From Rhynchobatus australiae (taxonomy: Eukaryota): DNA of 64,000 nucleotides. Both the position numbers and the translations under genes were made by a program. Shown piece after piece: positions 12,070 through 39,848 of the stretch. Position 1 is the stretch's first letter, and every line of letters begins with the position of its first letter. The notes beneath the pieces are model-generated. The model made no database searches and was not told the origin of the DNA. It saw only the letters and a list, made by a program, of their open reading frames with translations. The stretch lies in the NCBI GenBank assembly GCA_034780895.1, contig JAUZTB010000075.1, positions 4,936,523-5,000,522 of the forward strand, given 5' to 3'.

Positions 12070-12258
12070 TCTTGGGATGTATTTTTTCGAAATGCTAACA
12101 CAGGAGCAGCACCAGGCACTGCTTACCAAAGTCCTCCTCCACTGGGTGCAAGTCTGACTTCCTTATCTCAAGCCCAGTCCATGATAGTTGCACAGCCAAA
12201 CGTGGACAAGTTAGTGGAGGATCATCTGGCAGTACAGTCACTCATCAGAGCCTATCAG
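12070..12258 (+). CDS. OGDH: OGDH exon 3 equivalent (189 nt): [63 protein letters not shown]
   Basis: ttccttag|TCT...TATCAG|gtaatc; phase 0/0. Not in the supplied ORF track. Confidence 0.95.
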
Positions 12259-14476: not shown

Positions 14477-14576
14477 GTCAGGGGTCATCACATCACTAAA
14501 CTTGATCCGCTTGGCATTAATGTAGTAGATTTTGATGAGTCTCGTACTGCTTTTCCGGTTGGCACCTCCAGCCTTG
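14477..14576 (+). CDS. OGDH: OGDH mutually exclusive exon 4a (100 nt; type lacking Ca2+ site 1): VRGHHITKLDPLGINVVDFDESRTAFPVGTSSL
   Basis: tattcacag|GTC...CTTG|gtgaga; phase 0/1. Paralogous to the adjacent exon and similar to the mammalian VRGHHIAKLDPLGI... alternative exon. Confidence 0.92.
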
Positions 14577-14689
14577 GTGAGATGTTTTAAAATTATGAAT
14601 GTTTTCAAAAATATGTAAATTGTTCTTTTTCCTTCCTTCCCCTTCTCTTCCACCGTCCCTTCTTCTCCATTCTTTTCCACTTTTTCTAG
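14577..14689 (+). promoter_or_regulatory. 113-nt intron between the mutually exclusive exons: extended polypyrimidine tract with a 5'-proximal branch region
   Basis: No AG from 14582 to 14687. An almost pure C/T tract runs about 14620-14687. The last TnA-type adenosines are at or before 14619. Confidence 0.75.
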
Positions 14690-14792
14690 ATACGAGGGCA
14701 TCATGTTGCGCAACTGGACCCTTTAGGAATTCTGGATGCGGACCTGGAATCGTCCGTTCCAGCTAACCTAGCCACTTCCTCAAATGGACTTG
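14690..14792 (+). CDS. OGDH: OGDH mutually exclusive exon 4b (103 nt; Ca2+ site 1 type): [34 protein letters not shown]
   Basis: Long pyrimidine tract ending ttctag|ATA...CTTG|gtgagg; phase 0/1. Matches the canonical [19 protein letters not shown] sequence. Confidence 0.95.
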
Positions 14793-24700: not shown

Positions 24701-25129
24701 CCAGGGGACTCATTATTACAGTCCCTAGTGTAACTAGATAAAGCAAGGCAACGGCTGCAAATTCAAAGTGTTCTTGGCTGCATTCTTTGCCTCGAGAGCC
24801 ATTCTCATTACAATTCCAAATTTCTACAATAGCTAAATTTCAGAATTGCCAACCCCTGGATAACTAAGTGTACGTATAAAAGTTTCAAAAGCTCTGTTTA
24901 TTTTACTTTTATTTCAGTATTTTGCTGTTGATCCATTGGTGTGTTTACATTGCATCAGCAATCATGAAATTGCAGCTAATTAAATTTGTCTTGCATTGCC
25001 AAGGGCTTAATTGCAACTATTCAAATAATCTTTGATCTTTTGCTTATGACACCTCTTATACTGTTTCTTTTAAACTAACTATTTTGCTCGCTGTTCTGTT
25101 TTGTCTGTTTCTTGCACTCTTACCCATAG

Positions 25130-25174
25130 ACATCGCAGTCTGCAAGGAGCGTCTGAAAAAGTTGACGGTAGGAG
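25130..25174 (+). CDS. OGDH: OGDH 45-nt in-frame cassette ('insert') exon: (D)IAVCKERLKKLTVG
   Basis: CTAAC branch motif at 25075-25079, pyrimidine tract, cccatag|AC...GGAG|gtaggc; phase 1/1. Resembles the mammalian insert peptide DLAVFKERLRMLTVG (recalled from memory). Confidence 0.9.
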
Positions 25175-26209
25175 GTAGGCAGATGCTGGTGGTCTTGCTG
25201 TTCAGCCAGTTATATTTTGCTTTTTCAGCTTTCTAAATCATTTTTTGAGTAAGTCTGTTGTGTGGTGGGAGGGCAATAGTTGTGTTCAAAATCATTAGTA
25301 GCATCCAGGTATTTGTGTGCTGATTGCTGATTTTAAATGTACTTAAACCTGATTTCAAAATCATTGATGTCATGCTAAGGTTCAAGGCTTTTAGTAACTT
25401 GCTAATCTTTGCCAGGAATTTGTTGGGTCTTCGCCGCTCTGTGGTAGGGGGGAATTGAGCTGGCATTTTTAAAAACTTGTGTGTTAAATGGAGATGAAGT
25501 CACGGTCTCATAGCAGTAGAAAAAGATTGATCTAAACACTCAAAAACTAAAATGAATGAAAAACCTGTAGGAGCATTCTTTATTCTTACTCCATCAAATC
25601 TTGTGTCCATGGTATAGTTGTGTTTCAGATTTTGCTCCTCGTATTTTAATACAGCAAAGTTCAATCTTTGCAAAATTTTAAATACTAGATCCACCTTTTG
25701 TACATTTGCACTGATTTGAATGGGGTTGTCTTCATTCAATGGATAGAATGCCTAACGAAACAATTATCTCTCACACGTTGCACAAAACAAGAGTGTGTCA
25801 CTAGGTTTTCATTACCAATTAATTTCAGAAGTCCCAGTCCAGACATAATGTAACTCCTAACACAAATTTCTGCAGCACATTCCATCGACAAAGCACGGTC
25901 AAGTCAAGAATATATACCCACACATAATGATAGAATAATGTATTCTGAATATGGGGTCTAAAGTTCTTACCCGAGTAGAAGATCTCATCCACTTATTTCC
26001 AGCGGTACTGTTCCAAGTTTCAAAGCTGTTATGTCCATTTTGTTTAAAGTTTCCAGGGACCAAACTGAATATTTAATTCCCCTATTCCTGCACTGTGCCT
26101 TGAGCATCCACCTATATCCTCTTAATTTCTCTGAAGAATGATGTGGCAGATTCTTGACTGTTTGCTAATAAATATATGGTGAGTATTTTATAAACCCAAG
26201 TAAAGGAAG

Positions 26210-28630
26210 GAGGGGTAAGGCATTTGTCCCCTTGTGTCTGTTCCACCATTCAAAGAGATAATGGGTGATTTTTTTTAACCTCAGCATCAACTTCCTGCAG
26301 ATCCTTTGAATCCTAGAATATCCACAAATCTATAAACCTTTTCCTTAATCATACCCAGTGACTGAGCCTCCTCAGCCCTCTTGAGTAGTGAATTCCACTG
26401 ATTTACCACCCTCTGGTGAAGAAATTTCTTCTCATCTTAGTCCTAACTGGCCATCCTCTTATTTTTAGACTATGATCCTGGGCTCCAACATTGCATTTCA
26501 GGGGACACGTCATCCTGTTCAAACCTAGTAAAAATTTTGTACATTTCAATTGCATAATTTCTCATTCTTCAGAACAGACCCAGTCTGCTTAATATGAGAA
26601 TGTTGCCAGGACTCAAGGACCTGAGCTATAGGAGAGGTTGGGCAGGCTAGGACTTTTATTCCTTGGAACGTAGGAGACTGAGGGGTCTTACAGAGGTGCG
26701 TAAAATCATGAGGGGCATAGATGGGGTGAGTGCACACTGTCTTTTTCCCAGGGAGAGGGAACCAAAAACTAGAGGACATAGATTTAAGATAAGAAGGGAA
26801 AGATTTAAAAGGAACCTGAGGGGGCAGAAGATGGTGCATACATGGAATGAGCTGTCAGGCAAAATGGTTGAGGCTCATACTTTAGTAACATTTAAAAGAT
26901 GTTTGGACAGATACATGGATAGGAATGATTTAGAGGAATTCAGGCCAAACGTGGGCAAGTGGGACCAGCTTAGGTGGGCACCTTGGTCATCATGGAGGAG
27001 TTGGGTCAAAGGACCTGTTTCTGTGCTGTATTACTCTGTGACTCTAATAACTTCTTACAACAATCACCCCATCCCAGGAATCAATCTTTGATTCAGGAAC
27101 CTTTGCTGCATTCATTCAATCATGTGCGTCTTTCTTTCAGTAGGGAGATCAAACTTGTATACAATGTTCCCAGTGTGGTTTCAACATTGTTCTGACCTCA
27201 GTCCAATCCCACATGATGAANNNNNNNNNNNNNNNNNNNNNNNNNNNNNNNNNNNNNNNNNNNNNNNNNNNNNNNNNNNNNNNNNNNNNNNNNNNNNNNN
27301 NNNNNNNNNNNNNNNNNNNNCCCACAAATCCCACTCCCATAGATCCCAAGATCCCAAGAATCCAATTTGGTGTTCACTGCATTCCTTCTATCACAAATAG
27401 ATCCTTTCTTAGGAAGGGAAACTGGACCTATATGCAGTCTTGTAGATATAGTCTCACCAGGATGCTATACACTGCAGGAGTGCATCTTTATTCTTGTTCT
27501 CAAGTCCTCCTTGTATTAACGACCAATGTACCATTCGTGTACAAAGATACCCAGGTCAGTCCGAACAGCACCAACTTCCAATCTCACCATTAAGTATACG
27601 TAGCCGTTTTGTATTTTGTATACCAAAATGGATATCTTTACAATTTTCATTTTTATATTCCATCTTCTATGTCCTTGTCCATTCATTAAACCTGTCTATA
27701 ATCCCCCCGAAACATCTCTGCATCCTTCTCACTGCCCACTCTGACACCCGGCTTTTCGTCATTAGTAAACATGGATACATTGCACTTAGACCCCTCAGTC
27801 AAATTGGTGATGTGGATTAAGAACTGCTGGGGCCACATCACTCATCCTTGCTGAACCCTCCATCACAACTTCCCAACCAGAAAATGACCCGTTTATGTCC
27901 ACTGTTTTCTGTCATTTAACCACTCCTTCATCCATACCACGTGCTCTGAATTTGTTTAATGGACTCCTGTTTGGCACCTGAAAATCCAAATATATCATAG
28001 CCCCTTCTCTATTATGATTGCTACAACACTAAACCAAAAAGCTGGAATAGATTTGTCAAACATGATTTCCATTCCATAAATCCTATTATTATTTCCTAAG
28101 TATCCTGTCACCATTTCCTTAATAATGAATTTGAGTATTGTTGATGTTGGTCTAACTGGTCTGTGAGTTCCCTATTTTCTCTCTTGTTCCTTTCTTACAT
28201 TGTTGGATCACACTNNNNNNNNNNNNNNNNNNNNNNNNNNNNNNNNNNNNNNNNNNNNNNNNNNNNNNNNNNNNNNNNNNNNNNNNNNNNNNNNNNNNNN
28301 NNNNNNNNNNNNNNGATCACACTTCCTTCCTTCCATTCTGAGGGAACTGTTCAAGGATCAGTGGAATTTCTGGAAGATGACAACCAGTACAGCCCCTAAA
28401 TCCATAATAACCTTTCAAAACCTTGGGAAGCATGTCAACCGGTCCTGGGGATTTATAGGCTTTCACCCCCATTAATTTCTCCAATCCTTTTTTAAACAAA
28501 TGCGAATTTCTTTGAGCTCGTCATTTACTCCAGACCTACTGTTTTCCATCATCTCCTGGTGGTTTTCTGCGTCTTTTCCATGAAGACAAAGGCAAGGTAT
28601 TTAATTTCCCTGTCACTTCCTCATTTCCCA
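26210..28630 (-). mobile_element. Decayed CR1 LINE(s) on the minus strand, interrupted by a younger plus-strand CR1
   Basis: ORF 28317..28499(-) LMGVKAYKSPGPVDMLPKVLK (KSPGPD motif) and ORF 27149(-) LKPHWEHCIQ; 3' UTR near 26210. Confidence 0.8.
26598..27045 (+). mobile_element. 5'-truncated CR1 3' end (nested)
   Basis: ORF 26663 ERRRLRG.LTEVRKIMRGIDGV...TRGHRFK is the CR1 C-terminus; tail ends ...ctgtattactctgtgactct. Confidence 0.9.
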
Positions 28631-29690
28631 ATTTAATTTCAGCTTCCTCAAGAGTATCAGAATATATACATAAATATTGAATTCTCCAATTAAACAAACT
28701 GCAATGTTTAATTTTGACTGTAGATCCTGAAATCTTTCAAGGGTTATGGTGACCACACTTAGAAAATTAGACCCAATTGTTGTCAGGAGGGAGCAGATTG
28801 ATGAGCACAGCATGCCTCAGACTGTGCAGAATAATGTGTGCAGGGTGTAACAGTGGTTAGTAGCTTCTGTTAATGGGATTTGTATGAAGTTACCGAAAGT
28901 GCATGTGCTTCAGTAAATTCTTTGTCTCAGCCCTAAACTGATCATTTGGTTATCCATTTAAATAACTTTCACAAGTAATTTGGTTTGGGGATTTGCCTGA
29001 GCTCCATGGGTTTTTAAATCTCAAAAGGACAGCAGTTGAATGGTGAAATACGTGACAGAAAGCAGGCAAATTCTCGTCCATATCATGACATCTCTGACTT
29101 GTAATCAATTACATTATATATTTTATTAATTCAATTTTTCCATTTGACATTGACATTGGTTGATTAAAGATTCATTGACATAAATGTGTAGTACGAAATG
29201 TTCTTTTGTAACTAATATCAGAATTGTAAATACCATGACTGATTAGATGGGAGTGAAAGGACAAATTTGTTGTCAGAACATTTTGTTATTTGCAGAAGTG
29301 TGTCAATGTGGTTCTTCCATAATATACCAATGAAATGCCTTGATGATTGCTGAGTCTAGCACTTTTCATGGAGAAAGTGTAACATATAGCTCTTTGCTTG
29401 TTTCCAAGAATATGTCATCTCTTTCAAAAAGATCATTTCCATTTCCCAAAAAGGTTTAAGTGTTTTTGTTTAGAAGCTATGGTTAAATCCCTTCAAGTAG
29501 CTTGAAAGGATTGTCATTTGTTGTTTCAGATGTATTGATGTTAATCTTGAGTCAGTAAGGTTGTTTCATCAATTTTGTTAGTGTCTCTGCTTACATTTAT
29601 TATAGTCCACATTCTTTAATCCCAAACCCTGGAAATCTGATTTGGAATCCCAACACATAGAANNNNNNNNNNNNNNNNNNNNNNNNNNNN

Positions 29691-29970
29691 CACAGAGGCC
29701 ATTCAGCCCATCATGTCTATGTTGGCCATCAGAGCAACCTCATCAGTCCTATTTCCCCCACTTATTCCACTGTGACTGATTTTTCTCTCTCACATGCCCA
29801 TCAACTCAACCCTGATTTTTCTACCACCCACTTACAATTTACAGTAGCCAACTAGCCTACCAACCAACATGTCTTTGGGAAGTGGGAGGAAACGGAAACA
29901 CAGGGAGAAAGGGTAAACTCTACATAAACGGCACCCAAAGTCAAGGTCAAACATGTGCCACTGACAGTGC
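29691..29970 (-). mobile_element. HE1-like V-SINE; further copies at 34015-34155(+), 46645-46848(-), 55155-55485(-), 60025-60380(-) and 63370-63680(-)
   Basis: Shared ctttgggatgtgggaggaaac...cagggagaacatgcaaactccacacagacagcacc...ggattgaacc (V-domain plus B box, reverse complement) and a CR1-derived tail. Confidence 0.8.
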
Positions 29971-30144
29971 AAACAGGGTGGGTAGGTACTTCAGGTTGTA
30001 ACATACACTCACCAATCTTCAAACTTTCACTGCCATGTATTAGTTAAACTTTGACACCTTCACTGGTTTAAATCATTGCATCACGGATGGCCTGGATCTG
30101 CACACTGGCAGTAAAGAAACAGGCCTGAAAGTTAAAAGGCTCCA

Positions 30145-30340
30145 TGTATTGGAAATCTGAAATAAAAACCGGAAATGCTCGAAACACTCAACAGGTCAGG
30201 TGGCATCTGTGAGAAGAGAAATAGTTAATGTTTCAGGTCAAGGAGTCTTCCAAGGGTTTTTGACGTGAAGTGTTAACTCTATTTCTCTCTCCACATATGC
30301 TGGCTGACTGAGCGTTTTCAGCAATATTTTTGTTTTAATG
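30145..30340. mobile_element. Fold-back (inverted) Penelope-like terminal repeat remnant
   Basis: Arms at about 30165-30242 and 30259-30336 are imperfect reverse complements of each other. Confidence 0.7.
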
Positions 30341-31549
30341 TGAAGGACAGACCTGATTGACATTCATGTAACATGATAGTATTTTAAACTACCCATGACT
30401 TGATCTTTTAAGACTTTTTAAATCATTTAATCTTAGCAGCTAATTATCACTAAACTGGGGACTTTTTCTCACCATGGCCTTTCCTATCATGTACCTCATT
30501 AATTCCTGTCCTGGGATATACGTGGCAATCTCCCTCTTTTTTTAAAATATTTGATCTCCCTTTGTCTGTGTTGTGTGACTTCTGTTCATTTTCAAATTAT
30601 GTTATTATTTTAACATTGAATGTGTTGAATACTTGATAAAAGAATCTGGGCAGCAATGGTGCCAGCACAATAGATCTTAAAACATTTGTTTCCAATGTTA
30701 AGTGTGTCAGGACAATGCAATTATTTTCCCCATGATATATGCTTAAATGTAATGTTTGTGTATGTTGCAACTTTAATCACAAGCCCACACGTGGCATGTT
30801 TCACAAGTTAGTGTGGAATTGGTCACTTTAATCAGGATTATCATAATGGCACTGATTCAAATCCAGACTTCTTCTCTAAAACCTGGATTAGTTTTTGATA
30901 GTGCAATGGGGTTTACAGCTGTTATTAAAAAGCACTCCAGCTGAAATCAGAGTGTCACGCAACTGTTGAGGATTTAAAATAAATTGCAACAGTTTACCTG
31001 ACTAATCCAGTGTGTCAAAATTCACATCTTAAAATTGCCCATTAATAATCCAGAATGCTTGTTTCCATTTTTCTGTGGTGCCCATAGGATAGTGCAGTGC
31101 TCAATCCAGTCCTGTTGCTGAGATGTGTGCTAGCATAGTGCAACAGTGCATTACTTCCAGCTTTTGTGAGGAGGATTAACTTTTTGGATATTGTTCAATC
31201 TGTGTGTTTGCAGTGTTTGTTCTTATTTTCAAAAAGAACCCGTAAATGGAATTTGAATCAAAAGTGTTAAAATTGTGAAATCTATTGTTACCTTCAGGTT
31301 CTAACAAGAAAGATTTATTTAAATTTAAAGGGGAAGAAGAGTATCTGTGTTACAGTCCGAATTCTGCTGAATTACTCTACTAATTGCTAGGTGCATGTGC
31401 TTGCTTGGGCAGTCACCATTGAGTGAGGACACTGATTATTAGCTTGTAGTGTGTTCACTTGTGCATGCTTGGTGTTTAAGTCTGTGGTTTATCTGTGCAC
31501 CTATTGTGCCTGTTTATGGAAATACAAGTACGCTAGATAGTTTTGCAAG

Positions 31550-32037
31550 ATAATTTTGAATACTAAAAATTAACTTTTATTCTTCTTGTTTATCCCTTCT
31601 CACTATCCTTTCCTTGTCTCTAATTGTGTACACTAATGTATCTTTTTCTATGGTGCTTCCTTTTTCTGTTTAAAATCTACAAATTGAATAATCCTCATTT
31701 TCTCATTAATGCATCTTTTAATTGCCTTCCACCTGTTTCACTCTGCCTCTTGCTTCCCTGGTGCATTCTAACGTTGATGCCTTCTGATATTGCTTGTGTT
31801 TGCAATACTTATTTTGCAATATTTATATTGCACTTTTAAACCTTGTTTCATTTTTTTTCTCTATTACATCCTTTGTTGTCACCAACTTGCATTGCATGCT
31901 TTTGCACTGCCTCCTCTGCACCTCCTCGTGTTTATTTCTTACTTCATACTCTTGATCTATATGCCGCCACTTCCTTTCCGCGCTGCCCTATGGCTTTCTG
32001 CGTCCTCGTGTCATATCTCACGGACAAAATTGTGCAG
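31550..32037 (+). promoter_or_regulatory. 486-nt AG-exclusion zone and candidate distant branch point region upstream of exon 5
   Basis: No AG between 31548-31549 and the acceptor AG at 32036-32037. Pyrimidine-rich. Branch-like motifs TACTAAA (31561), CACTAAT (31631) and CTAAC (31768); TGCATG at 31893. Confidence 0.8.
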
Positions 32038-32153
32038 CATTTTATGGCCTAGATGAGACTGATCTCGACAAAGTCTTCCACTTGCCCACGACCACCTTCA
32101 TCGGAGGCAATGAAACCGCCCTTCCTCTTCGCGAGATCATTCGGCGAATGGAG
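32038..32153 (+). CDS. OGDH: OGDH exon 5 equivalent (116 nt): (A)[38 protein letters not shown]
   Basis: tgtgcag|CA...ATGGAG|gtatgt; phase 1/0. Confidence 0.95.
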
Positions 32154-32769
32154 GTATGTGATCAAACTTGAAATCAACCGCATATTTTTGCTTTCCATCA
32201 GGATGTATGTGCAAAGTTCATTAGTATTTATACAGCCAAAAGACCAATTCAAAAGTGATCAAAACTTTGTATTTTGGTCTTTCATTTGTGTGTTGCATGA
32301 CATATTTAATTTATGAAACAAAAATGGAAAGGGATCCGGTGTGGAGAAATGCCTTCAGTTTGGTGTGAAAGAGGAAGACATGTGGCTGGCCTTTAGTGTC
32401 ATGCTTGCTTTTTGGCATCAGCAGGTTTCTTCATGTCAGAGCTGGATTTACTATTGGCGACACTGGCATATCCACAGCAGAAGTAATGTCCATCTCAATC
32501 ACAGCCAAGAAAAGTACTAAATACATTGAAAGAGCAGCCAGCCCCTGGTTCTGCCAAGTATAGCTTCGTGTTTCCTTAAAGAAAGCAAAAGAGCCAAAAT
32601 AACAGTTGAGCAACTTCTGGTGCTCGTTATCACATAGCTATCTCATTCAGTAGGGGAAGGAGACAGATCTGGGTATTTTGTATTTTTCTTATACTTGTAC
32701 ATTGGCAAAATGCCATAATCTTCACTTCTGCTGATTTACTTCATGCAAAACATTTATACCTCCCACAGC

Positions 32770-35130
32770 GTTACATAGAATATAAGAGTAAGGAGTTTAT
32801 TCGACTCTTCAAGCCTGTNNNNNNNNNNNNNNNNNNNNNNNNNNNNNNNNNNNNNNNNNNNNNNNNNNNNNNNNNNNNNNNNNNNNNNNNNNNNNNNNNN
32901 NNNNNNNNNNNNNNNNNNNNNNNNNNNNNNNNNNNNNNNNNNNNNNNNNNNNNNNNNNNNNNNNNNNNNNNNNNNNNNNNNNNNNNNNNNNNNNNNNNNN
33001 NNAACCCCCTCCTATCCATCTACTTATCCAAATATTGTTTAAATGTTGTTGTACCTATCTCAACCACTTCCTCTGGCAGCTCATTCCATGTACACACCAC
33101 CCTCTGCGTGAAGAAGTTACCCCTCAGTTCCTTTTTAAGTTCCCCCTCACCTTAAGCTAATGCCTTCTAGTTTTTAGTTCCTTTTCCGTGGGGGAAAAAG
33201 ACCATGTGCGTTCACCCTATCTATACCCCTCATGATTTTAATCACCTCTATAAGGTTGCCCCTCAATCACTTGGGTTCCAAAGCATAAAGTCGAGCCTGC
33301 CCAACCTCTCCCTATAACTCAGGCCTCGAGTCCTGGCAGTATCCTCTGATTGAATATATTTAATGTTTTGCCATCAGCTGCCTTCTGTCTTGGAGAACCA
33401 CACAGATTTCCCACTCTTTTTGGGTGAAGAAATTTCTCCTGTTCTCAGTCTAAATGGCTTACCCCACATCCTTGGGCTGTGACACTGAAGTCATGGGCTC
33501 TCCCAACGTTCTTGCAAGAAGTCTGTCCAGTCCTGTCAGGATTTTGTACGTTTCAGTGAGGATCCTCTCATTCTCATCAATTCAAGTCCATTAAATAAGC
33601 CCATTTGTACCAATTGCTCTCCATTCATTAAGCTGCCATCCCGGGAATAAATCTGGTGAACCTTTGACAGCGAATGCCAGGTGAACGTACCAAGTCCTTC
33701 CTGTTGACTTGTCTGCTTCCCCAATTCCACACTTCCGGGACATGTAAACTTTGAAAGGTCCAAAGTTTTAAAGTTTTTTACTTCTGATTTGAAGTTGCTC
33801 AACATGTTTTCCTGATTTATTCTCTTTTTAGTTCATGTGTCTTTACTCCCATCCCCACCTCATGAAACCTCAAAGGTGAAAATACTTTAGTCTTTGACTT
33901 ACAGGAAGACTAAATAACAAGCAGTTTTCAATTTTTTAAAAGCACGTCTATGTTGATGCAGCGATCAAAAAATGTTTTTGAGTGGGGATAAAAAACCTTT
34001 TATATTGGGCGAGGCAGATGGTGCTGCTATCTCACCACTCCACAGACCCAGGTTCAATCCTGACATCAGTCTTTGTGAAATTTGCATATTCTCCCTCTGA
34101 TGTTGTGAGTTTGTCCCATGTTCACCAGTTACCTCCCACATTTCAGACATGCTGATTACATAAAATCATGGAATATAGAAATTAGGGAAGGCTGGTTAGT
34201 CCTTCAAGCTTCCTCTGCTGTTTAGCACAGTCATGACAGATCATCCAAACTTCCTGCTTTCTCCCCATGTTCCTTCAGCCATGAGAACTGTACCCAACTC
34301 CTTATTGAATATATTTAATGTTTTACTCTCAACTGCCTTCTGTTGTGGAGATTTCCAAAGATTCACTACTCTTTCTGGGTAAAGAAATTTCTCTTTGACA
34401 CAATCCTACATGTCTTAACCCACATTCTTGGGATCTGATCCTTGGTTCTGTACTTCCCCACATTCCTGCATCGTCTGCCTAGTTCCATCAAGGTTTTATC
34501 AATAGACAGATAGACAGACATCCCTCTCTCAGACTAAACAGCCTTCCCCTACTTCGATATTCCATGTAATCAGCAAGATAAGGAGACCAAAACTGCACAT
34601 AATAATCAAGGTGTCTCATCAACCCCTGTAAATTGCGGTAAGACATTCCTGTACTGAAATCCTCTTGTTATGAAAGCCAGCACACCATCTGCTTTTGTGA
34701 GCATTTGCATACTTATTTTCATTAACTGATATGCAAGATAGCCCAGATCTCATCAAACCTTGCCCTTTCCTAATCTTTTACCACTCAGATAATCTGCCTT
34801 CCTGCTTTTGACACAAAAGTGGTCAAGTTTGTTTATACTGCATCTGCTTTGCGCTCCTTCAACCTGTCCAAATCCCCCTGGAGCCTCTCTGCAAACTCCT
34901 CACAATCCCATTCGCTTTAGAGTTAGAGCAATACAGCACGGATACAGGCCCTTCAGCCCAACCAGTCCATGCTGACCACGGTGCCCAGCCAGCTTGTCCC
35001 AATTTCCTGCGTTCGGCCCATATCCCTCCAGGCCCCATCCCACCATGTACCTTTTGTATTGTTCAAAAATCAGAGATTCTATTTAATTTCCTCATCTAAA
35101 TCATTAATCAAAATCATGAATAGCAGTGGG
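32770..35130 (-). mobile_element. Cluster of nested CR1 3' fragments and a SINE
   Basis: Repeated CR1 3' motifs (cacttcctctggcagctcattcca...caccctctg.gtgaagaa; catagaa/tacagcacgg..acaggcccttcagccca). Confidence 0.75.
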
Positions 35131-38250: not shown

Positions 38251-38523
38251 TGACTTGTTTTTATCTGTTCTATTATTGGAATAAGTTCTTTACAAGTGCC
38301 ATCATTACCTTTTAACATTNNNNNNNNNNNNNNNNNNNTACAAGGAATCTATTGGGAGAGTTTTCCCTGCCCACCAGTCTTGATGAATTTGTAAGACTGC
38401 TGCAGGATCATGTGGACAAATTACTGAGCAGCCCATTGAGCAAAATGTTAATGAACCTGGGTATTTACCAAAGCTCAGTGTTGCCAGTACATGATTATAT
38501 CTCGTGCTGTTCTGTATGCACAG

Positions 38524-38764
38524 GGTACTGGTGATGTGAAGTACCATTTAGGTATGTACCACCGGAGGATCAACCGTGTATCAAACAGGAACATAACCCT
38601 TTCACTCGTGGCTAACCCATCCCATCTGNNNNNNNNNNGCACTGCACAGGTCAGCACGTTCCAGCCTTCTCACTAACCCATCCCATCTGGAAGCTGTAGA
38701 TCCTGTGGTTCAAGGAAAGACCAAAGCAGAACAGTTTTACCTCAGTGACACAGAAGGAAAGAAG
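38524..38764 (+). CDS. OGDH: OGDH exon 9 equivalent (180 coding nt = 38524-38628 + 38690-38764; 61 extra nt including a 10-N gap as assembled): [60 protein letters not shown]
   Basis: gcacag|GGT...AAGAAG|gtaaag. Removing 38629-38689 restores a 60-codon exon. Confidence 0.9.
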
Positions 38765-39848
38765 GTAAAGCTTCGAACTACCAACTGGTGTATCACTGTT
38801 ATTTTACAACTAGTTGCATTGCTGAAAATAAATGGGCATGTTCTTTGAGAGAGCATATTGATTGGTGTGATGTGGAATGTAAAACGATGCATCTCTTGTG
38901 CAGCAGGGGTTGGGACTGGGGAATATTGACTGGATCACAGCAGAACTATACATACCCTGAGAGATCTTATAGGATATATTGTTATCTTTTTGATGAGCCC
39001 CTTATTTTCCTTTTAAGCAATATTTATTTCTTCTGTCTTATTCAAAGATGAATTCTAATTATTTATTGTAGGAAGCGTGATCATGTCTTGCTCGTTTGTG
39101 TGAAGCTGTGTTCACTGCTGCTACCTCTTTCTATTTGGGACAGAGATTTTTCTATGACTATGTGGCCCTGAATGAAGGACACAATATTCCAATGCTGCAC
39201 TTTAGCTAATATCTACTTATAGAAAGTCTGTCTGGTTTAATTGTGTCTTCAGCCAAGGTGAATACAGTATGTTGTCTGAAGCAGTAAAAATTGTTTTGTC
39301 TGATAACTCTGGCACGTTGTTGGATCTTCAATATCCAACTTGATTAACATTTCTTTATCTTAACCCAGCAGTGATTGGGAATACATATTGTAGTCTCACT
39401 TTATTTCACCTCTTGGAGAGGGGGGTGAGGGAGAGGGGATGGAATTCCATGAACGTTAAGTGTGTGCTTCACAAAACTGCAAGATACCAAAAATCTTCAC
39501 ATTTGTTTCAACTGTTATGAATACAATGAGAAATGGTATTTTTGTCAACTGAGCTTGCTTTTCTCAAGATCTTGCAATAAGTTCTGTTGAGTAGCTACAT
39601 CCAAGCCAGCAGTCTTTTAAAGAGATAACTACCCTTTCTTCCCCCCTTGGGAAACATTTATAATATCTACTGACATTCCATGCAATTTGTGGTACAGATC
39701 CTAATGGTGCAAGGATAAATTGTTCTCCCACATTCAGTATCCCTTGTATTGACCCTGTGTAAAGTGAATCTGAAGAAACCAAAACTGTAATTGGTTCATT
39801 AAGAATCAAGGATGGAACAGATTAAATCTTGATGTGTGATTGTTGCAG

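Follow-up and report, generated by a model that had tools for sequence, protein, structure and literature searches.

An AG-free zone of 486 nt upstream of OGDH exon 6 in Rhynchobatus australiae: a candidate distant branch point region

OGDH splicing sets the response of mitochondrial NADH supply to calcium in muscle and neurons, and OGDH is a recessive disease gene (PMC9905285). Within this gene, distant branch points have been published for intron 4a (Kralovicova et al. 2021, PMC7969005; PMC6093180), and the published branch-point work covers this intron only. A limit of about 50 nt is given there for the steric constraint on the spacing between donor and branch point. In the published numbering, the target exon is exon 6, and exon 5 is the 45-nt insert, which is enriched in neurons and has a conserved activator described as unidentified; the acceptor labelled exon 5 in the original prediction is therefore that of exon 6. 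The main text of PMC7969005 mentions exon 6 once, for the ESDLD motif, and ‘intron 5’ nowhere.

Outside OGDH, the closest described systems are the exons with long AG-exclusion zones collected by Gooding et al. 2006 (PMC1431707). In the entries listed there, the zone measures 381 nt at PTBP1 exon 11 (branch point at -351), 438 nt at nPTB, 287 nt at GABBR1 exon 23 (-275) and 590 nt at Fugu PTB exon 11 (predicted at -566). Only 165 of 67,334 human exons reach a zone of 150 nt, and lengths of 873 and 1126 are also listed. A signature at the 5′ edge of the zone located verified distant branch points, and a fifth to a half of the zones of at least 100 nt are estimated to mark such branch points. 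Neither ‘OGDH’ nor ‘oxoglutarate’ is found among the supplementary entries listed. The original prediction was not aware of a distant branch point in OGDH. This does not hold for intron 4a (PMC7969005) but stands for the intron before exon 6, for which we found no description in the openly accessible articles searched.

Gene context and properties of the zone

The window, that is the whole stretch of 64,000 nt analysed, contains the OGDH features collected in Table 1. Exon 6 matches human OGDH (PDB 7WGR, E 1.6e-17) and carries ETDLD where the human E1 ‘site 2’ motif is ESDLD. The RNA evidence consists of raw reads of a close relative (relative C, 3 runs) and not of the organism of the window itself. 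Junctions of exon 5 with exon 6 are covered by 9, 4 and 5 reads in the three runs. Direct joins of exon 4 to exon 6 are covered by 6, 3 and 11 reads, with majority letters of 4a, 4b and 4a, respectively, and exon 6 is spliced in turn to exon 7. As originally predicted, exons 4a and 4b as well as the 45-nt insert are all spliced to this acceptor.

Table 1. Coordinates of the OGDH features in the window (distances are relative to exon 6)
Feature	Position	Strand	Remarks
OGDH exon 3	12070-12258		
Exon 4a, mutually exclusive	14477..14576	+	100 nt; joined directly to exon 6 in reads
Exon 4b, mutually exclusive	14690..14792	+	DADLE; joined directly to exon 6 in reads
Exon 5, 45-nt cassette	25130..25174	+	spliced to exon 6 in 3/3 RNA runs; own AG-free zone 124 nt
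Two TGCATG hexamers	31392..31467	+	at 31392 and 31462, just 5′ of the zone; unchanged in relative B
Conserved block over the 5′ end of the zone	31372..31730	+	0/359 differences in relative B; 0/166 over 31539-31704 in relative C
AG-exclusion zone	31550..32035	+	486 nt, 69% pyrimidine; 3′ end of OGDH intron 5 (25175-32037)
Best candidate distant branch point cluster (predicted)	31561..31615	+	TACTAAA, A31566 = -472; ATTAAC, A31573 = -465
Second candidate branch cluster	31618..31670	+	CTCTAAT, A at -415; CACTAAT, A at -402 (A31636); adjoining tract
TGCATG hexamer within the zone	31893..31898	+	
Acceptor AG of exon 6	32036..32037	+	first AG downstream of the zone
Exon 6	32038..32153	+	116 nt; encodes ETDLD

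Some features of the neighbouring exons are worth recording. The Ca2+-binding motif DADLD, described as essential for Ca2+ binding, is retained in the OGDHL of the same genome but reads DADLE in exon 4b. Intron 4a (14577-14689) comprises 113 nt, is AG-free over 106 nt and contains a long pyrimidine tract, which corresponds to the published steric distant-branch-point layout. Upstream of exon 5 (25002-25129), the 124-nt AG-free zone is accompanied by ACTAAC about 55 nt upstream and by TGC about 17 nt before the exon. This arrangement recalls neuronal SRRM4-type acceptors. At 38500-38800, an OGDH coding exon is broken by a 10-N gap with short duplicated flanks, probably an assembly artefact.

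AG dinucleotides are located at 31548-49 and 32036-37 with none between them, which bears out the predicted lack of AG from 31549 to the acceptor at 32036. The base composition of the zone (T216 C121 A93 G56) agrees with its predicted pyrimidine richness. About 30 AGs had been expected, a number that is correct as a window-wide rate (30.3 for this length) but not for the composition of the zone itself, since its high pyrimidine content lowers the expectation to 10.7. None of 20,000 mononucleotide shuffles of the zone was free of AG. The reverse dinucleotide GA is only mildly low (6 against 10.7 expected), so the depletion is specific to AG. The AG-free length thus exceeds 150 nt beyond what composition accounts for, upstream of an acceptor used in 3/3 RNA runs. 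Among the N-free AG gaps of the window it is the longest on either strand, followed by 201 nt (+) and 131 nt (-); two longer gaps span N runs and were left out of this ranking.

The zone contains a single tandem repeat of 34 nt, and no microsatellite in it accounts for the lack of AG. Its sequence has one match in its own genome, in a search that skips common words, and no self-match within the window; the claim that it is TE-free is supported to the extent of these two observations. The segment 31926-32150, which extends from the last part of the zone into exon 6, is the densest in CpG of the window per 225 nt (15 against 12 in the next) and is not especially conserved in relatives.

The 5′ edge of the zone is sharp. 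Four AGs fall within 31527-31549, the second AG gap upstream is as short as 7 nt, and TACTAAA and TTAAC follow within the next 25 nt. The positions predicted for TACTAAA (31561), TTAAC (31570) and CACTAAT (31631) were all confirmed, and the ACTAAT of the second cluster also fits the QKI motif. Scoring was done by a simple pairing count and not by SVM-BP. Of 37 TNA sites, the top three by pyrimidine richness of the downstream 40 nt all lie at 31572-31579, and the tract that follows the 31561 cluster is the best of the zone (87.5% in 40 nt).

Branch consensus and pyrimidine tract are thus adjacent at the 5′ edge, while the proximal signals are poor. With a proximal pyrimidine fraction of 0.44, the exon-6 acceptor ranks lowest of 16 OGDH acceptors (the others range from 0.56 to 0.94), as expected from the original remark that it has almost no proximal tract. 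A CTCAC of the yUnAy type does exist near the acceptor, with its A at -18, but the bases between it and the AG, GGACAAAA, are purine-rich and therefore leave no tract for U2AF65. At 12 of the other 15 OGDH acceptors examined, the AG-free zones measure 21-63 nt; the other long ones belong to exon 4b (106), exon 5 (124) and one acceptor whose zone crosses an N run (147).

TGCATG, the RBFOX motif, occurs at the three predicted positions (31392, 31462 and 31893), but only the last of them is inside the zone. Together with a fourth hexamer at 32294, four copies are found within 903 nt (31392-32299) where 0.41 are expected, in a segment picked post hoc. UGC is present 21 times in the zone against 6.2 in shuffles. 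The many YGCY motifs and CU-rich runs noted originally are sustained in part: YGCY is modestly enriched (12 against 6.7 in shuffles, p=0.025), whereas the CU-type motifs TCTT, CTCT and TTCT do not rise above the level given by the composition of the zone.

At an intronic depth of 0-5, at which lariats are hardly to be expected, the reads of relative C contain no lariat joints, loose ends or read-start piles at the candidate branch points, and no step in depth at 31560 (mean 3.6 upstream, 3.1 inside the zone). In 3/3 runs, reads of the sense strand are present over the upstream intron (summed mean depth 3.5), but the initial 300 nt of the intron that follows have none. With a rough p of 0.001-0.03, totals of 31, 17 and 52 reads per run and a read filter that may thin depth, this contrast is a weak hint that the intron before exon 6 is removed late. 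In run X17, two reads at 31320-31499 are oriented opposite to the OGDH reads.

Relatives, paralogue and other species

Relative B is represented by a contig of 1,591 nt for which all 30 differences are listed: 23 in 30511-31371 (861 nt), none in 31372-31730, 6 in 31731-32035 and 1 in the exon. Compared with the upstream 23/861, the invariant block of 359 nt gives p=0.0007, the block having been picked post hoc. A similar contrast is obtained for relative C (0/166 against 23/558 upstream, p=0.004), while for relative F the difference over the 5′ edge is not significant (5/157 against 40/604, p=0.13). Both candidate branch clusters are free of differences in relatives B and C, whose upstream flanks differ by 3-4%. 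Since the 5′ edge is invariant in these two, the putative branch-point edge appears to be under constraint in two of the three assessable relatives. Taken over its full length, the zone in relative B (6/486) shows no significant excess of conservation over the flank (p=0.12).

In relative B the zone is likewise AG-free. For relatives C, D and F, the comparison of the zone rests on the differences listed, with 113 and 28 more beyond those. Among the listed differences of the relatives, 8 substitutions fall in the zone and none creates an AG; only 8-10% of substitutions would do so, and the absence of AG among these changes therefore lacks test power. Relatives C and D share a deletion at 31429.

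In the paralogue OGDHL, the AG-free zone measures 44 nt. OGDHL has one exon 4, and no match to exon 4a or exon 5 was found in the 30 kb searched, which include 3,877 N. A metagenome scan yielded 7 loci, and the four examined comprise one vertebrate-like locus (L004) and three invertebrate-like loci (L005-L007). The fish-like contig L004 shows an AG-free zone of 147 nt including a CA repeat, on a gene for which OGDH and OGDHL were not told apart. At the DNA level, the best match of our zone to OGDHL or L004 has an E value of 0.068. The invertebrate-like contigs L006 (175-650) and L007 (700-1100) contain tandem duplicated exons for the same RGH..LDPL segment, a 4a/4b-like pair outside vertebrates.

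A possible human counterpart may also be considered. If human exon 6 starts at 44,706,335, a branch point at chr7:44,706,211 would lie at -124 and be a far-distal site. This branch point (hg19, plus strand, 2 reads) is reported in File S2 of a human branch-point catalogue and is the one plus-strand branch point in 44.70-44.71 Mb among the rows listed (PMC5959240); human OGDH exons 3-4b are located at hg19 44,684,925-44,687,358 (PMC8039021). The rows listed in the tables of Taggart 2017 (PMC5378181) contain no branch point at chr7:44705-44706 kb.

Weighing the explanations

A stretch of 486 bases without AG, a weak proximal tract, branch motifs with a tract at the 5′ edge and the conservation of this edge together make it likely that exon 6 uses a distant branch point about 400-470 nt upstream and that the spliceosome scans from there until it meets the first AG. 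U2AF and U2 snRNP would assemble on 31561-31670, the lariat would form at A31566/A31573 or at A31636, and scanning would proceed from the branch point to the AG at 32036-37. Assembly of U2 at such a distance, followed by scanning to the first AG, implies that AGs are purged from the intervening sequence, as any new AG within the zone would be a false acceptor and would be removed by selection. Speculatively, the long spacer with its UGCAUG, UGC and ACUAAU elements may bind regulators that slow or tune the exon-6 acceptor. Such tuning might alter how often the neuronal 45-nt exon is included, or how long the intron persists, but not the choice between 4a and 4b. Exon 5, intron lifetime and exon-6 skipping with decay are plausible points at which the acceptor could exert an influence. 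A bolder proposal, which we regard as doubtful, is that OGDH has a second, vertebrate-wide distant branch point on a constitutive exon that receives all the alternative exons. It would serve as a downstream timing gate tunable by RBFOX, QKI or MBNL, where a slow exon-6 acceptor keeps the intron open for the decision on the neuronal 45-nt exon and for coupling to 4a.

Some observations speak against a distant branch point: neither the whole zone in relative B nor the edge in relative F is significantly more conserved than the flank, the zone of L004 includes a CA repeat, and the human site has 2 reads, depends for its distance on the exon-6 start used and is missing from the Taggart rows listed. 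Others also speak for the main remaining rival, in which the proximal CTCAC at -18 is used and the zone is a pyrimidine- and UGC-rich tract, either regulatory or neutral. CTCAC fits yUnAy and could act as a branch point, the far candidates yielded neither lariat joints nor read-start piles at an intronic depth of 0-5, and the estimate of Gooding et al. (PMC1431707) leaves many zones of at least 100 nt without a distant branch point. In addition, an AG that arose downstream of a tract of this kind would act as a strong cryptic acceptor and compete with the weak real one, so that selection against cryptic AGs would produce the same AG-specific loss. Nonetheless we judge this reading unlikely, since the purine-rich GGACAAAA offers U2AF65 no tract, the zone begins exactly at its best branch-plus-tract site, no microsatellite explains it, and the invariant part is the 5′ edge while the proximal part varies (the 6 differences in relative B at 31731-32035).

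A distant branch point might also serve a different purpose, namely a switch between inclusion and skipping of exon 6 with nonsense-mediated decay, as for PTBP1 exon 11, or a detained intron that lowers OGDH output. The length of exon 6 is not a multiple of 3, so that skipping would shift the frame and direct the mRNA to decay. Alternative splicing is more common among exons that have distant branch points (PMC1431707), retained introns show an excess of far-distal branch points (PMC5959240), and reads are found on the upstream intron but not on the initial 300 nt of the following one. Against this, read coverage is the same before the zone as within it, the read filter may thin depth, the stretch used for read mapping could not have revealed exon-6 skipping, read numbers are tiny (31, 17 and 52), and our literature searches retrieved no report of it. 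We consider such a switch quite improbable.

The gating role originally proposed for the far branch point, to choose between the Ca2+-sensitive (4b) and the Ca2+-insensitive (4a) isoform, is not supported, as the 4a/4b choice is already set by the intron-4a distant branch points, which together with U-binding proteins account for it in minigenes (PMC7969005). The acceptor is indeed common to all three upstream exons, the long zone is present in OGDH with its alternative exons and lacking in OGDHL, where none showed, and the four TGCATG copies exceed expectation, albeit in a segment chosen post hoc. Yet the zone lies 17 kb downstream of 4a/4b and serves both exons, its base pairing with the 4a/4b flank is not beyond controls, and exon 4b here encodes DADLE and not DADLD. 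Gating of the 4a/4b choice is thus very unlikely; an acceptor that lies downstream and is common to all isoforms could, at the most, shift how often the 45-nt exon is included or when splicing takes place.

Two further readings place an additional element in or beside the zone. The donor-like CAA|GTACGC (GT at 31528) precedes the candidate branch points by 38-45 nt, which is below the steric limit of ~50 nt, and might belong to a hidden exon sterically exclusive with exon 6 in the style of intron 4a. A 47-nt exon at 31481-31527 would preserve the frame without a stop, and the conservation in relative B reaches upstream to 31372. We find this highly improbable, given that 15% of 40-nt windows contain a donor match of 6 of 9, that the acceptor tract is poor and the peptide unlike exon 6, that no loose ends are seen at 31527 or 31481 at the low read depth available, and that relatives C and D are deleted at 31429. 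It is scarcely credible that the last part of the zone, which is rich in CpG, holds an internal promoter or provides an alternative N-terminus in frame with exon 6. The 225-nt segment with the highest CpG density in the window would fit this reading, and the frame of exon 6 is open for 28 codons upstream and resembles an Arg-rich leader; but there is no in-frame ATG (those present, at 31961 and 31990, are in other frames), substitutions in relative B alter residues, relative F differs at 11/170 positions, no read-start pile is present, and only a fifth of the zone would be covered.

Several other candidates were rejected. Folding of the zone plus exon and of its 3′ part as a structured RNA gave z values of -2.0 (20 shuffles) and -0.8 (200), which is unconvincing, and an Rfam scan of 30500-33000 returned 0 matches at E<=1. 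An RNA bridge to the flanks of 4a/4b and exon 5 would form duplexes of -34 and -40 kcal/mol, within or at the edge of the range of 10 control segments (-31 to -44 kcal/mol), and the best long-range helix of 16 bp lies outside the zone and is cut by the deletion in relatives C and D. Coding use was discarded because there is no in-frame ATG upstream of exon 6 and the longest open stretch on the minus strand comprises 69 codons. Steric mutual exclusion would require a used donor within ~50 nt of the branch point; the nearest one is 6.4 kb upstream, and the site at 31528 is at chance level and without reads.

Significance and comparison with known systems

The candidate distant branch point at exon 6 is best read as an addition to the known class of AG-exclusion zones with distant branch points. 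The layout itself is known, and the interest lies in the gene and in the location on a common exon. If confirmed, a second distant branch point would be an added control point of OGDH, most plausibly for the neuron-specific 45-nt exon, and deep-intronic variants that create an AG over 100 nt ahead of human exon 6 could disrupt a disease gene yet escape exon-focused screening. The downstream gate, if real, would represent a case in which a distant branch point controls the exons that precede it instead of its own.

The human branch point at chr7:44,706,211 (Pineda and Bradley 2018) is on the plus strand, 19 kb 3′ of exon 4b and likely in the same intron; it differs in its distance, about -124 from the exon start given above compared with -400 to -470 here, and is an unannotated table row with 2 reads.

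With the exons of Gooding et al., the locus shares the long AG-free stretch, the tightly spaced AGs upstream (7 nt here), the branch motif and U-rich tract at the 5′ edge, and the use of the first AG. Its 486 nt belong to the top class of the available list without being a record (873 and 1126 exceed it). Unlike those exons, OGDH exon 6 appears to be a common downstream exon and not a cassette, its branch point is a candidate predicted from sequence, and UGC and UGCAUG are enriched in place of PTB-type CU motifs, which do not go beyond composition.

Intron 4a is the nearest relation, as it shares the gene and its alternative region, an AG-free zone, an extended pyrimidine tract and a distant branch point, which is putative at exon 6. 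Intron 4a is short, and its branch points, located less than 50 nt from its donor, enforce mutual exclusion (PMC7969005), whereas the exon-6 candidates are 6.4 kb away from the exon-5 donor, and steric exclusion does not follow from such a distance.
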